Positions 21,001-27,000 of a stretch of 45,791 bases of DNA are shown in pieces (positions within the stretch are counted from its first letter, which is position 1; every line of letters begins with the position of its first letter). The stretch spans positions 1 through 45,791 of the forward strand of contig JBIIPZ010000028.1 in NCBI GenBank assembly GCA_044342325.1, read 5' to 3'. The DNA is from Terrimicrobiaceae bacterium. Lineage in GTDB: Bacteria > Verrucomicrobiota > Verrucomicrobiia > Chthoniobacterales > Terrimicrobiaceae. A program made the position numbers.

Positions 21001-24000
21001 GTTTACAAACCCACGCGCGGGGCGATTCACTTCAATGGCGTCTCGCTCCACGACAAGAAGGCCAACCGCATCACCGCGCTCGGCATTGCCCGCACATTCC
21101 AAAACATCCGCCTCTTCGGTTCGCTCAGTGTTTTCGACAATGTCCGCACGGCCATGAATGGACGGCTTCGCCATGGCATCATCCACTCGCTCACGCGGGG
21201 GCCGGCATTCCGTGCCGAGGAGGAACGGATTCGCGGTGAAGTTCTCGCGCTTTTGGATATTTTTGGACTCAAAGATGATGCCGACAGGCAGGCGACAGAT
21301 CTGCCCTACGGCGACCAGCGGCGCTTGGAAATCGTGCGCGCCCTAGCCACTGGCCCACAGTTGCTCCTCTTGGACGAGCCTGCCGCTGGCATGAATCCCA
21401 CGGAAAAAGTCCGCCTCATGGAGTTGATCCACTTTGTTCAGGAAAAATTCCGCATCGCCGTGCTTTTGGTGGAACACGACATGCGCGTCGTCATGGGGGT
21501 TTGCCAACGGATCGTTGTTCTCGACCACGGCCAGAAAATCGCCGAAGGCACGCCGCAGGCTATTCAACGCGATCCCAAGGTCATCGAAGCCTATCTGGGG
21601 GAGGATGCTCACCATGCTTGAGATTCGGAATCTCCATGTCAGCTACGGAGGCATCGCCGCGCTTCATGGCATCTCGCTCGAAGTTCCTGCCGGGAGCATC
21701 GTGACACTCATCGGCGGCAACGGAGCCGGAAAATCCAGCACTCTGCGCGCGATTTCGGGTATCGCCAAGGTTGCAAGCGGGTCGATTATTTTTGAGGGGC
21801 GGGACATCACCAACAAGCCCGCCCACGAAATCGTCGCCCTTGGCTTGGCCCACTCGCCTGAGGGACGCATGGTCTTTTCAAATCTCACTGTCCTCGAGAA
21901 TTTGCACATGGGCGCGCATCTGCGCCGCGACCGACAGGCCATTTCCTCGGACCTGGAGCGCATTTTTACTTTGTTCCCCAGATTGAAGGAACGCCTCCAA
22001 CAAGCCGCTGGAACGCTCAGCGGCGGGGAGCAGCAGATGCTCGCCATCGCCCGCGCCCTCATGTCGAAGCCGAATTGCCTCCTCCTTGACGAACCCTCGC
22101 TGGGCATCGCGCCGATTCTCGTCCAAACGATTTTTTCCCGCATCTTGGAGATCAACCGCGAGCTCGGCCTCACCATCCTGCTCGTGGAACAAAATGCCAA
22201 CCTCGCGTTGCGCATCGCCAGCCACGGCTATGTCTTGGAAACCGGTCGCATTATTCTCAACGACACCACCGAAAGCCTTCGCACTAACCCCGCCGTCCGC
22301 TCCGCCTACCTCGGCGAAGAGCATGCTCCTTGATTCATTGGCTTTTTTCAAAAACACCCATCAAAATAGAAAAGTCGAGAATTCCTAAAAAGAACGTGTT
22401 TTTTCTGTTTTGATCGGATTATCAACGGCAAAAATAGGATAAAACGCGCAAAAACCTAGCGATTTCAAAGGAGGTCATTCATTCCTCCAAGAAATTCAGG
22501 AATCGGTTGGGCGCTCTTTGAGATGCGCGGTAGTTGGGCCTCTCGGGCGCGGAGTTGCCTTTTTTTCCGAAGAACTGGCTTGCCAAGCGGCCTTGTCTCT
22601 TACACTTTCCTCGCCCTTGAAATGAAAAGTCGGCCTGCTGGTTGCGAGGAGCGCCACTTTGTAACAACTTCCCGATCATGTCCAAATCCCTTGTCATTGC
22701 CGAAAAACCCTCTGTAGCCCGCGATCTTGCAAAGTCTCTCGGTAAATTCACCAGTAAGGATGATTTTTTTGAAAATGACTCTTTGGTAATTACTTCTGCT
22801 GTAGGCCATCTTGTCGAACTTTGCCTGCCAAACGAAATGGACAAAAAGCGGGGTAAGTGGAGTTTTGCGAATCTCCCGATCGTTCCTGACCATTTCGATC
22901 TCAAGCCGATCGAAAAAACCGCCTCCCGTCTCAGCCTCATCAAGCGCCTGCTCAAGCGTCCGGACATCACGGAAGTCATCAATGCCTGCGACGCCGGCCG
23001 CGAGGGGGAGTTGATTTTTCATTACATCATCCAGCTCGCGAACTCGAAAAAGCCGACCCGCCGCTTGTGGCTGCAGAGCATGACGACCGAAGCGATCCGC
23101 GAGGGATTTGCGCATTTGCGTGCTGGAAAAGAGATGGTTCCGCTTGCGGATGCCGCTGTTTGTCGCAGCGAAAGTGATTGGCTTGTAGGCATCAATGCCA
23201 CGCGTGCCATGACCGCTTTCAACTCCAAGGGTGGGGGATTCCAACTCACGCCCGTCGGCCGCGTGCAGACGCCGACTCTCGCGATCTTGGCCGAGCGTGA
23301 GGAAAAAATCCGCGCCTTCAAGCCGCGTCCGTATTTCGAAGTTTATGGTGATTTCGGTGTCACCGCCGGCTCATATCGCGGCCGTTGGTTCAGCGAGGGC
23401 TTCAAAAAAGGCGACGACGAGGATGCGAAAGCCGAGCGCATTTGGGATCGCGCCGCAGCTGAGGCGATCGTCGCGAAATGCCAGGGCAAGCCGGGCGTCA
23501 TTACCGAGGAAAAAAAGCCCACCACGCAAGTCGCCCCGCAACTCTACGATCTCACGACACTCCAGCGCGAGGCGAACTCCCGCTTCGGCCTGAGCGCTAA
23601 GCGCACGCTCCAGATCGCCCAGGCGCTCTACGAGAAACACAAAGTCCTCACGTACCCGCGAACCGACTCGCGCTACCTGCCGGACGACAACCTGCCGAAT
23701 GTCAAAAAAATCCTCGCCGGGATTGAGCCTCAGGATCTCGCACAACACGCCCGCTACGCTCTCGACAAAGGATTGATCGGCCTGAACCGCCGCGTTTTTA
23801 ACTCCGCCAAAGTCACCGACCACTTTGCCATCATCCCGACCGGAGTTTCGCCCAAGGCGCTCGATGATTTTGAGTTCAAGATTTACGACATGGTCGCCCG
23901 CCGCTTCGTGGCCGCATTCTATCCCGCTGCGAAATTCGAGGTAACCACTCGCATCACCCGCGTCGAGCAGGAGGCCTTCAAGACCGATGGAAAAATCCTC

Positions 24001-27000
24001 ACCGATCCAGGCTGGCTCGCCGTTTATGGCAAGGAAGCCGCTGGTGATGAAGACCAGACTGTCGTGGCGATCAAGGCCGGCGAATCCGCCAAGACCGAAG
24101 CGCTCGAGGTGAAGGAAAATGAAACCCGGCCACCAGCCCGCTTCACCGAAGCCACGCTCCTCTCTGCCATGGAAAGCGCGGGTAAACTCGTTGATGACGA
24201 GGAACTCCGCGAAGCCATGTCGCAGCGAGGTCTCGGCACGCCAGCCACTCGGGCCCAGACGATCGAAGGCCTCATTCTCGACGGATACCTGCTCCGTCAA
24301 GGCCGCGAAATCATCGTGACCTCGAAAGGCCTCGCCCTCATCACCCTCCTACGCGGTCTCGGCATCCAATCCCTCACATCACCCGAAATGACCGGCGAGT
24401 GGGAATTCAAATTGAAGCAAATGGAAGGCGGTGGACTCGACCGCGGACGCTTCATGGACGAAATCCGCGCCTACACCACCGACATCGTCGAGAAGGCCAA
24501 AAATTTCCAAGGCGACACGATCGAAGGAAATTTCGAGGACATCGATGTCACCTGCCCGAAATGCAGCAGCCGGGGTTTCAAAGAATCCTTCAAAGCCTTC
24601 GAGTGCAAAACTGAGGGCTGCGGGGCCATTGTTTGGAAAAACATGTCTGGCCGAAACCTTGAGCGCGAGGAGGTCGAAAAACTACTTACCGAAGGCCGCG
24701 TCGGCCCGCTGGAAGGCTTCCGCAGCAAGATGGGCCGACCGTTCTCCGCCATGGTGCAATTCGACAAAACCGAGGGCAAGCAATCCTTCGACTTCGGTGA
24801 AAATGCCGACTCCGCCGCGAAGATCAATTTTGCGGAACTCCCGAGCATCGGCACCTGCCCCGCCTGCAAAACCGGCACGATCCACGATACCGGCACCGCT
24901 TGGCAGTGCTCGAATGTCGGCAAGTGCAAATTCCGCATGGGGAAATCCCTCTGCCAACGCGAAATCCCGCGCGAGCAAGTCGAAAAAATCCTCACAGTCG
25001 GCAAAACCGATCTCATCCCACGCTTCATCTCCAAAAAAGGCCGACCCTTCTCCGCCTACCTCAAACTCGAAGATGGCAAGGTCACCTTCGAATTCGAGCC
25101 CCGCGAGAAAAAAGCTCCCGCCGCGAAAAAGCCCGCCACACGGAAAAAAGCGGCAACCGCTTCGAAGTAGATTTCACTCGGCCGGTCAAGCCCGCGCCAT
25201 TTATTGCAGCAGCTTTTGCCTTAAATCGGCCGGCATGACTGTCGAAGAAAGAACGAACGAGCGCGCAGCATTCGGATCGACTTTTTTCCAGTCGCTCACG
25301 ATCCGGTTCAGCGAACTGCTGAGTCTTGACGGATCAGAAATGCGCGAGGCCCATTGAGCGGCCGTGGCAGGATTCGCCTTGGCTAATTCCACGCTGAAAG
25401 CCGCAGTGGCGACATCCCTCGCCTGCGCATCTTTGATTGAGCCAACCCACTGTGCTGCTTCGGCGGGGTTGGTTTGGCTCCACGATGTCGAGACGGCCGA
25501 GAGAGCTTTATTCCGGAGAGCGCTGTCTGTGATGGATGAAGCCCAACCAGCAGCCGAGCCGGGGTCGAAGGCGGCCCAGCGTGATGACACGCTCCCCACC
25601 AATGAGGATGCATGCGGCTTTGCGGCATCACTCGACAGCCAATTTGCGGCGGCTACCGGATCCATGCTGGAAAATCTTTGCATGGCGGACTGGACAAAAC
25701 CATTGCGAAGCCCAGCATCGGGAATTGCCTGAGCATAATCGATAGCCGCACCGGGATCGCGCGACACCCAATTTCCCGCAAGCTGGCGGAGCGCTTCGCT
25801 GCGAAGTTGCTGCGAGCCTTGCTGCATGATCCAAGCAGCTGTGGCCTCGGGATCCGAATTGGACCATAGATTGACGATCTCGCGTGTGGCAGCCAGTTGC
25901 ACAGGGCCGGCCAGTCCTTCAGCCCATTGCAGGGCGGCATTTAAGTTTCCCTTGGCGAAATGTCTGGCAACGGCGGATGTTGCAACCGTCTGAGCCGATC
26001 CCATCGGAAGTGTGGCGATCGCGCTGGCGGCTTGGGCGGGATTGGTCGAGGACCATGTGCCAAAAATCTGCCCAAGCGCCGTATCCCTCGCCAGTGGAGA
26101 GTCGAGGTTCGCAGCCCATTGCGACGCACCAACGGGGTCGGTTTTTGCCCAGGCCGTGGCGGCTGTTTGCAAAAGACGCGGATTGCCACCCTGAGCGACC
26201 GCATCAGCGGCAAACTGACTTGCGCCAATCGGATCGAGTTTCGACCACTGGGCCACCAGATTTTGCTCCAACTCATCTGTCGCGGCGGTCGCCAGCATGC
26301 CATTCATCTCCTGCAGGCGGGCTTGAACTTCCGGAAGCGTCAGTTTTTCGATTCCTGCGGCCGGATTGGAATGCGGCGCGCTTTTTTGTCCCGTTGTTTT
26401 CGCGCTCTTTGGTGCCGTTTGCGGCTCGTCTCGTTGAGAGTCCAAGGAAACGAATCCTCCGATCTGTTCTTCGATGCGCTCCGCATCACCGCGAAGCGGA
26501 GTTTCTGACGCCTTCAACGCTGATTTAAAAAACGGAACGCCCACCACATAGCCTGCGCAAAAACCAGCTGCGCAAAATAAAACAAAGACGAGTGTTTTTT
26601 TCATGGCGGATAAAAACGCGGAGTCCAAATCAAAATCCGGGAAGCATATGTTTTCAAGGGTAATATACTTGGGCTGCCAAGCGCAGTTCCCGCTTGCTAA
26701 AAATGTTCCTATTTGCGCCTGCGAGCATTGTCAGATAGGATTGTCGTTTACCAAATATGTCTTCCCTGACACTTGAAATCACATTTATTTTTCTGTTGCT
26801 CTTCGCGAACGGCCTCTTTGCCATGGCTGAAATTGCCGTGGTCACATCGCGCAAAGCGCGCCTGAAAGGCATGGCGGAAGATGGCGTCAACGGAGCGAAA
26901 CTCGCCCTCTCCCTGGCCAATTCACCGGGAAAGTTTCTCTCCACCGTGCAGGTGGGCATTACCTTCGTGGGGGTGCTGGCCAGCGCGCTCGGCGGTGCTA

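Follow-up and report, generated by a model that had tools for sequence, protein, structure and literature searches.

A tail-extended topoisomerase III as the probable substitute for topoisomerase I in most Verrucomicrobiia and many Burkholderiales

The window under analysis, a stretch of 45,791 nucleotides from a Terrimicrobiaceae bacterium (GenBank assembly GCA_044342325.1, contig JBIIPZ010000028.1), hosts the gene topB, which encodes a DNA topoisomerase III (Topo III) of the PRK08173 clade (Table 1). The protein exceeds the cut-offs of three curated models, NF006032 (1224 bits, cut-off 1058), NF005829 (660 and 597) and TIGR01056 (604 and 516), and falls below that of the TopA model TIGR01051 (201 versus 456 bits). 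The signature AEKP is found at residues 8-11, and E9-K10 are invariant among 53 aligned relatives. Together with the YP motif, these data bear out the class assignment proposed in the first-pass annotation. A lysine next to the first Toprim glutamate is presented as a Topo III feature in a passage of PMC10969213. The best relative among solved structures, aligned over residues 5-609, is E. coli Topo III (E 6e-98). The insertion at about residues 501-516 is presumably the decatenation loop, judging from the position of the loop in the E. coli enzyme. Such a loop exists in E. coli Topo III (PMC7587558). Neither a sigma-70-like promoter nor an excess of terminators was found around topB.

Table 1. 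Features of topB in the window
Feature	Position	Strand	Basis
topB, PRK08173-clade DNA topoisomerase III, 830 aa	22678..25170	+	profile searches; ATG at 22678 corresponds to position 1 of NF006032
Toprim domain, residues 5-123, Topo III-type Glu-Lys-Pro at 9-11	22690..23046	+	signature according to a passage of PMC10969213
Type IA core PF01131, residues 154-593	23137..24456	+	Pfam match
Tyr326-Pro327, Tyr326 being the putative catalytic tyrosine	23653..23658	+	aligns with YP of E. coli Topo III; TopA has YM
Insertion, about residues 501-516, taken as decatenation loop	24178..24225	+	present in E. coli Topo III, gap in TopA
C-terminal repeat 1 (approximate ends): C626, C629, C643, C648 module, then PF13342	24553..24795	+	model pLDDT 93
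C-terminal repeat 2: C727, C730, C744, C750 module, then PF13342 (749-807)	24856..25098	+	Pfam, alignment, model
Basic tail rich in Lys and Ala; 9 of the last 25 residues are Lys or Arg	25105..25167	+	sequence

The C-terminal repeats had been described as of the kind usual on Topo I. This is not supported: they match PF13342, the Topo I repeat is PF13368 according to part of PMC9369019, and neither PF13368 nor PF01396 is found in the protein at E<=0.001. Weak PF01396 matches occur in the tails of 5 of 78 relatives. The tail has no clear match, by sequence or by fold, to the solved Topo I tails. Single-sequence models were discarded (pLDDT 42), and fold comparisons relied on confident alignment-based models, which matched solved Topo I C-terminal domains weakly (Foldseek E 0.77 to 4rul_A; Z 2.8 and rmsd 12.3 over 74 aligned residues of 9gda_F). 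Poor matches of predicted models are evidence for neither a new nor a different fold.

In the source genome (86% complete, 78 contigs) one PF01131 match and one gyrA/parC-type match were identified, and neither Topo IB nor Topo VI B was found. Hence topB is the only type IA gene found there, as first noticed. That gyrase is the sole other topoisomerase is true of this genome, but not of the class, since a second type IIA A-subunit occurs in many families and Topo IB in 4 of 30 genomes, additions that the first-pass annotation had itself reported for some class members.

The distribution of the two enzymes in Verrucomicrobiota is sharply partitioned. Among 251 genomes of Verrucomicrobiia, NF006032 (E<=1e-150) is matched in 222 and TopA is found in 27; no genome hosts both, and two host neither. 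TopA was found in none of the 40 genomes of the order, and in 79 of the 80 that represent the other classes, in agreement with what had been claimed on both points; one genome of another class also has Topo III without TopA. Loss of TopA from the class as a whole, in turn, is rejected: TIGR01051 is over its cut-off in all 6 genomes of family f13, 19 of 28 of f21, and the single genomes of f46 and f56, four families forming one clade (SH-aLRT 98). These TopA proteins are of the ESP/YM type, with at least one motif in 26 of 27 (those complete enough to show it) and YM in 27 of 27 loci. The 4-7 TIGR01051 matches in the TopA-bearing families resembled paralogs, and correspond to tail repeats of one gene. 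Because of kinship the relatives are not independent, and such counts are not to be treated as trials.

Some Beta-proteobacteria had been suspected to rely on the same clade as sole type IA enzyme, and this is borne out. Out of 201 Burkholderiales genomes, 94 have Topo III only, 104 TopA only, 2 both and 1 neither. TopA was found in none of 18 named carriers of PRK08173-type Topo III. The initial notion of a whole-class replacement therefore stands in its substance, Topo III in place of Topo I, but was too wide, as 11% of the sampled class genomes keep TopA, and too narrow, as it left out the Burkholderiales and the one genome of another class. In published transposon tables, where orthologs were assigned by Pfam list, name and genus rather than by sequence, the Burkholderiaceae Topo III is listed as essential in 3 of 4 species; in B. 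pseudomallei the ortholog figures among the non-essential genes, and one of three LB passages gave a non-essential call for BCAL0462. Burkholderiaceae with an essential Topo III also have Topo IV. By contrast, topB is dispensable in E. coli and B. subtilis.

Both gene types often occupy a common chromosomal slot, with the layouts dprA-[gene]-xerC and dprA-smg-[gene]. In f21, dprA lies directly upstream of all the 9 chimeric genes described below and of all the 9 sister topA genes examined, and xerC downstream of 8 and 7 of them, respectively; the outgroup G253 has the same gene order around topA. At non-chimeric Topo III loci of the class, dprA, aroB or xerC are in place in 12 of 20 cases, and no marker was found in 8. 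Of the 80 named Topo III loci, 51 have dprA no more than 5 kb upstream, as do 15 of 20 topA loci in Burkholderiales, and DUF494/smg lies between dprA and topA or Topo III genes alike. Relatives of the window protein thus occupy the topA slot, unlike topB of the source genome, which adjoins neither dprA nor xerC.

The family f21 is especially informative. Each of its 28 genomes has exactly one PF01131 gene, and in 9 of them the topA slot hosts a natural chimera, in which a Topo III core is fused to the zinc ribbons of TopA. The core shares 29-33% identity with sister TopA, and the tail 52-72% with the tails of the four closest f21 TopA proteins. At the DNA level, within one genus, identity is 87% as far as 26 nt ahead of the start codon, absent in the core, and 95% over 212 nt in the tail. 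Chimeras score 297-317 bits against TIGR01051, below the 456 cut-off (4 of 9 scanned), and carry three PF01396 ribbons each (2 of 9 scanned). Both alleles occur inside single genera, and the chimeras do not form a clade on the RpoB tree (AU p 1.8e-55, 5 changes among 12 rows); the two alleles have been swapped between relatives. TopA alleles also move, as TopA of g35/g47 is 84% identical to that of f56, and 62-66% to other f21 TopA. In the core tree, from which two G195 rows lacking the motif were left out, Topo IIIs from verrucomicrobia that are not chimeric fall inside the group of chimera cores, a topology compatible with one or with several fusions.

Reviews from 2009 to 2024 assign, in the passages bearing on this point, Topo I to every bacterium and regard Topo III as optional (PMC2647321, PMC7140829, PMC10969213), and TopA plus gyrase are called the minimal set in part of PMC7398561. 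E. coli Topo III is described, in part of PMC7140829, as a weak relaxase at normal supercoiling; when overproduced, it can suppress or partly offset the loss of topA, as stated in a section of PMC6547408. The mutual exclusion of the two genes, their common slot, the chimeric intermediate and the published essentiality of Burkholderiaceae relatives support the replacement of Topo I by Topo III. Most probably the tail-extended PRK08173 enzyme has repeatedly displaced topA, usually in place, and would do the job of Topo I as the housekeeping type IA enzyme of the cell; tree tests leave the number of events in the class free. The core would nick unwound DNA through Tyr326, and then pass a strand. 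Tandem four-cysteine/PF13342 repeats and the basic tail may add single-strand binding, plausibly supplied in the chimera by TopA's own zinc ribbons. Such binding would enable the enzyme to remove transcription-driven negative supercoils, suppress R-loops and oppose gyrase, and the decatenase activity is probably kept. The clade may travel on plasmids, recombination in conserved flanks (dprA upstream, xerC or zinc-ribbon repeats downstream) putting the gene in the place of topA. A plasmid origin is suggested in a passage of PMC2647321.

Some data count against displacement: the decatenation-loop-like insertion is kept, the E. coli enzyme relaxes weakly, the tail has no clear match to Topo I tails, the topB gene of the source genome, which is incomplete, resides outside the slot, markers of the slot are lacking at 8 of 20 class loci, and a second type IIA enzyme (in many class members) or Topo IB (in 4 of 30) could share the load. 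The first and last of these data, and the non-essential listing of B. pseudomallei, which like that of BCAL0462 also counts against displacement, would fit an enzyme remaining mainly a decatenase and a resolver of R-loops and recombination intermediates, in cells that can do without a dedicated relaxase, gyrase being weak, supercoiling low, or relaxation provided by Topo IV or Topo IB. One type IA copy would then be enough because whatever need is left could be covered by any type IA gene, and in B. subtilis raised levels of Topo IV replace both type IA enzymes (PMC6547408, in part). We regard this as unlikely. In seven genomes assembled as a single contig there is one type IA gene, one gyrA-type gene and no Topo IB, and thus no Topo IV either; Topo III is listed as essential in Burkholderiaceae that have Topo IV; the chimera retained zinc ribbons which in E. 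coli bind single-stranded DNA for relaxation, as reported in part of PMC7140829; and within one genus some members have TopA and others the chimera, in otherwise similar backgrounds.

The direction of the exchange is a separate issue. Topo III may have been fixed once in the ancestor of the class, and TopA regained by transfer in the clade of f13, f21, f46 and f56, the chimera being a step back toward TopA. The TopA families are nested, though weakly (80), among Topo III-only lineages in a class whose backbone is unresolved, and the mobility of TopA alleles would also fit. Yet, the AU test does not reject (p 0.225) a tree uniting all Topo III-only lineages, with the TopA clade as sister, and gene order around topA matches that of the outgroup; we consider such reversal conceivable but rather doubtful, and it would alter the history, not the functional equivalence of TopA and Topo III. 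That divergent or unassembled TopA genes were missed, or chimeras mis-assembled, is a reading already largely refuted, and highly improbable. The majority of the genomes are draft assemblies, 24,000 bases of G085 were withheld, 2-3 in 100 weak matches escape long queries, and no type IA gene was seen in two of the 251 class genomes. In contrast, the search that yields TopA in nearly all the sister-class genomes passed the cut-off for 10 of the 14 controls, a set that includes 10 bacteria; among the 28 genomes in 1-5 contigs, 26 have one PF01131 gene, and the other two no match over the TopA cut-off; and the chimeras recur, besides the 9 genomes, in 47 clusters from independent assemblies of four sources.

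The rule granting Topo I to every bacterium is broken by two unrelated large groups, well-studied genera such as Paraburkholderia, Cupriavidus, Nitrosomonas, Polynucleobacter and Variovorax included. No report of Topo I loss in these bacteria emerged from the literature searched, subscription journals being mostly outside its scope. A 2007 Biochimie review reportedly includes a type IA phylogeny. We are inclined, by a narrow measure, to see PRK08173 as a functional class of its own, the third among the type IA enzymes of bacteria, in which a Topo III core was made the main relaxase by its tail, and does the work of Topo I and, where Topo IV is missing, part of that of Topo IV. According to this view, core and tail are natural swappable modules, TopA and the chimera still replace each other in the topA slot within genera, and Topo I is absent from a large fraction of bacteria, many Burkholderiales included. 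Whether core or tail makes a relaxase or a decatenase is a standing question for type IA enzymes, and the chimera and within-genus allele pairs provide ready matched constructs to address it. Studies of supercoiling, R-loops and Topo I inhibitors in the carriers deal with an enzyme other than the one assumed.

As a member of PRK08173 (NF006032), which stands beside PRK14724 among the NCBIfam Topo III equivalogs, the window protein belongs to a family whose name is already known to annotation pipelines; the model conveys the name only, and the exclusion of TopA, the common slot and the chimera were established here. E. coli TopB shares the Glu-Lys and Tyr-Pro signatures, the loop insertion and the TIGR01056 profile. 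It differs in its basic tail, which is short and lacks repeats (PMC9369019, in part), as opposed to the tail of about 220 residues with two four-cysteine/PF13342 repeats in PRK08173, and in being dispensable and coexisting with TopA (PMC6547408, in part), whereas PRK08173 excludes TopA and has relatives listed as essential. TopA (omega protein) resembles the clade in the slot held by relatives, the single-copy housekeeping pattern and the long cysteine-rich tail, and the f21 chimera has true PF01396 ribbons; the window protein departs from it in the core (about 24-33% identical), the failed TIGR01051, EKP/YP instead of ESP/YM, and the missing PF01396 and PF13368. By eye, its basic tail resembles the lysine repeats of actinobacterial TopA shown in part of PMC7398561. 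In archaea and eukaryotes type IA enzymes are likewise Topo III, with no Topo I, but most lack gyrase or have a Topo IB or Topo VI relaxase (PMC2647321, in part), while Topo III of the carriers faces gyrase, in some genomes alone. Plasmids of Beta- and Gamma-proteobacteria are a plausible mobile source. Full-length relatives (at least 80% coverage), 42-47% identical, occur in 103 plasmid records; they are accessory, one tested falls below the NF006032 cut-off (922 bits), and they lie outside the chromosomal group in a FastTree phylogeny.

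The type IA enzymes of these bacteria are best explained if Topo I was displaced, repeatedly and in place, by a Topo III with an extended tail, and if a chimera found in nature is the intermediate. The protein encoded by topB passes the cut-offs of NF006032, the model of the PRK08173 family (1224 bits against 1058), NF005829 and TIGR01056, and remains below that of TIGR01051, the TopA model (201 against 456 bits). Both residues given as Topo III signatures in a passage of PMC10969213, the lysine following the Toprim glutamate and the proline following the tyrosine, are present, and the assignment to Topo III made in the first-pass annotation is confirmed on these grounds. 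Of solved structures the closest, at E 6e-98, is E. coli Topo III (Topo I of the same species: 4e-32), which shares with the protein an insertion absent in TopA in the alignment. The PRK08173 family itself is already known and named in NCBIfam. Toprim and PF01131 are accompanied by two PF13342 units. The repeats had been described as of the Topo I kind, but they differ from PF13368, the repeat of mycobacterial Topo I according to a passage of PMC9369019. The tail is modelled as two similar units (pLDDT 93) with conserved four-cysteine sets, and no clear match of it to solved structures was found.

TopA is over the cut-off in 27 of 251 Verrucomicrobiia genomes (250 drawn at ≥90% completeness, plus that of the window, G000), in 0/40 genomes of the order Chthoniobacterales, and in 79/80 genomes of the other classes. 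Absence from the order and near-universality in the other classes thus hold, while absence from the whole class does not; the proposed replacement of Topo I stands in its direction and fails in its scope. TopA resides in families f13 (6/6 genomes), f21 (19/28), f46 (1/1) and f56 (1/1), which form one clade (SH-aLRT 98) in an RpoB+RpoC tree of 20 genomes with a weakly resolved backbone. A tree uniting all Topo III-only lineages was not rejected (AU p 0.225), so that TopA may have been lost once or several times. NF006032 matches at E≤1e-150, a limit also reached by two control TopBs, occur in 222 of the 251 genomes (138 over the cut-off). Of the other 29, 27 have TopA and two are drafts where the search for type IA genes found none, and TopA and an NF006032 match occur together in none of the 251. 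A 1.7-Mb genome of another class (G252, 100% complete) carries a PRK08173-like Topo III (L115) broken by a run of N, and TopA was not found in it; this is probably a further independent replacement.

Only one type IA and one gyrA/parC-type gene were found in G000 (86% complete, 78 contigs), as previously annotated, and neither Topo IB nor the Topo VI B subunit was found in this draft. That gyrase is the only other topoisomerase fits G000, but not the class at large, since a second type IIA A-subunit occurs in many families (121 genomes searched) and Topo IB in 4 of 30 class genomes. TopA-less genomes assembled in 1-5 contigs have one PF01131 gene in 26 cases out of 28, and two in the remaining 2. 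Seven single-contig genomes (G030, G037, G039, G055, G068, G080 and G086) carry a single type IA and a single gyrA-type gene and lack Topo IB; Topo VI was not found in the three of them checked. Extra divergent type IA genes, under the TopA cut-off, were noticed in G157, G195, G215 and G225 (L038-L043, L046, L051), possibly on mobile elements; the resident type IA gene of G195 looks split over contig ends. A gyrA-type match is missing in three f21 drafts (G050, G070, G094), and a type IA gene was not found in drafts G072 and G211, most likely because of assembly gaps.

Family f21 bears on the proposed displacement. All 28 genomes have exactly one PF01131 gene, which in the 9 TopA-less genomes carries the Topo III motifs EKP and YP and is a chimera. 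Four chimeras scanned pass TIGR01056 and score 1002-1031 with NF006032; in two, one PF13342 is followed by three PF01396 zinc ribbons. Against sister TopA the core shows 29-33% identity; for the last three ribbons, identity with the nearest four TopAs of f21 is 52-72% (two chimera tails are incomplete because of a gap or the end of the contig). Chimeras lie in the order serS-tilS-aroB-X-dprA-[gene]-xerC, topA is placed likewise in sister genomes, and aroB-X-dprA-topA-xerC is found also in an outgroup (G253). dprA is directly upstream of 9/9 chimeras and 9/9 topA loci examined, xerC downstream of 8/9 and 7/9, respectively. In two genera some genomes have the chimera and others TopA. Between G022 (chimera) and G041 (TopA), DNA identity is 87% along a 1.7-kb stretch that stops 26 nt short of the start codon; it is undetectable in the core and reaches 95% in 212 nt of the tail. 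In an RpoB tree built from 3 relatives and 9 of the 28 genomes of f21, chimeras are scattered, requiring 5 changes, and their monophyly is rejected (AU p 1.8e-55). The architecture was seen again in 47 clusters (ENA, JGI, NCBI, Logan). Flank and tail identity, allele pairs within genera, scattering and recurrence indicate, at the sequence level, that the topA slot is exchanged through recombination. Next relatives of the chimeras are verrucomicrobial Topo IIIs of about 965 residues (61-72% identity), with which their cores group (FastTree support 1.0). TopA of genera g35 and g47 of f21 (L110, L111, L114; G136, G011, G190) has 6-7 zinc ribbons, and its core is 84% identical to f56 TopA and 62-66% to other f21 TopA; TopA alleles seem to pass also between families. 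In both g42 genomes the rpoB match lies inside a 2672-residue open frame (G022:C34, L083; G041:C23, L087), which suggests a fused RpoB-RpoC; the frame has about 1260-1300 residues in other f21 genomes.

Among 20 non-chimeric class loci, hand-chosen across families, upstream dprA/aroB or downstream xerC is kept at 12, and aroB-dprA-topB-xerC is complete at two. dprA and xerC of G000 reside on contigs other than that of topB. Two stand-alone PF01396 matches were noticed in this genome, the first about 2.3 kb from dprA.

The PRK08173 enzyme had been suggested as a possible sole type IA enzyme of some Betaproteobacteria, and this proved correct. The matches listed include at least 80 named Topo III loci, mostly betaproteobacterial, with 51-63% identity in the best segment, and TopA was found in 0/18 genomes taken from named loci (17 titled betaproteobacteria). 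In 201 Burkholderiales, the order of the Massilia genome, TopA occurs in 106 and an NF006032 match (E≤1e-200) in 96: 94 have Topo III only, 104 TopA only, 2 both and 1 neither, counts that include kin and hence non-independent genomes. Where both occur, the TopA-like gene is weak (G397; 488 bits, on a 105-kb contig without dprA) or the match partial (G421; 678 bits); a fragment of TopA is present in the genome with neither. At 51 of the 80 listed Topo III loci and at 15 of 20 topA loci chosen out of the 106, dprA is found upstream at a distance of at most 5 kb, and DUF494/smg, the identity of which was confirmed in 4 of 5 genomes, intervenes at 36/80 and 18/20, respectively. Records L171, L179 and L180 are titled Bifidobacterium, Bifidobacteriaceae and Chitinophaga; their loci look betaproteobacterial or verrucomicrobial by gene identity and dprA/xerC neighbours, and the titles are probably wrong.

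Passages of PMC7140829, PMC2647321 and PMC10969213 assign Topo I to all bacteria; one of PMC7398561 gives TopA plus gyrase as the minimal set, and names a 'TopA homologue' in Bordetella pertussis. Loss of Topo I is unmentioned in passages of PMC7823277, PMC7587558, PMC12445093 and PMC5714199. No report of it was found in a literature mostly exclusive of subscription journals, and there may be earlier notice of it, especially for Burkholderia.

As to function, it is likely that the tail provides single-strand binding, that the enzyme removes negative supercoils driven by transcription, and that it is still able to decatenate. The tail would act in place of the Topo I ribbons, to which a passage of PMC7140829 ascribes single-strand binding. 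Full-length relatives on 103 plasmid records are a possible source of the gene. A laboratory fusion of 1996, in which the E. coli Topo I tail was set on a truncated Topo III, reportedly restored relaxation more than decatenation. The main rival, which we regard as unlikely, is that the enzyme's work is still decatenation and the handling of R-loops, the cells concerned needing less relaxation. Transposon tables, in which PRK08173 orthologs were taken from Pfam list, name and genus, bear on the matter. Among the listed rows of PMC11681206, Paraburkholderia phymatum Bphy_0032 belongs to the essential set, having 0 insertions; apart from it, just one row is for a topoisomerase other than type II, a 1.2-kb non-essential gene. 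In PMC4993015, the input pool shows B. cenocepacia BCAL0462 to be essential, with calls of E/NE/E for LB and E/E for M9; the orthologs of this gene are essential in B. thailandensis, and non-essential in B. pseudomallei. Both tabulated species, P. phymatum and B. cenocepacia, have Topo IV. In three of these four species of Burkholderiaceae Topo III is listed as essential, in contrast to topB of E. coli and B. subtilis, dispensable according to a passage of PMC6547408, where overproduction of E. coli TopB is also described to suppress or partly offset topA loss.

The surroundings of topB are listed below. No Pfam family was found for the convergent ORF at E≤0.001. The 1403-aa protein resembles, by eye, autotransporter-repeat PEP-CTERM surface proteins. 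The last gene of the transporter-like cluster was confirmed as an ABC ATPase.

Coordinates of topB, its neighbours and isolated matches in G000 and G252
Feature	Location	Strand	Remarks
1403-aa Gly/Thr/Asn-rich repeat protein	window, 11028-15239	+	VPEP motif and hydrophobic segment at end
Branched-chain amino-acid ABC transporter-like cluster	window, 17776-22333	+	five genes, just upstream of topB
topB ORF	window, 22678-25170	+	830 residues
475-aa ORF	window, 25201-26628	-	convergent on topB; N-terminal hydrophobic stretch, Trp/Ala-rich repeats
Stand-alone PF01396 zinc ribbon	G000:C16:18715-18813		in 257-residue frame
Stand-alone PF01396 zinc ribbon	G000:C40:64622-64735		in 273-residue frame
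PRK08173-like Topo III (L115)	G252:C18:12006-13966
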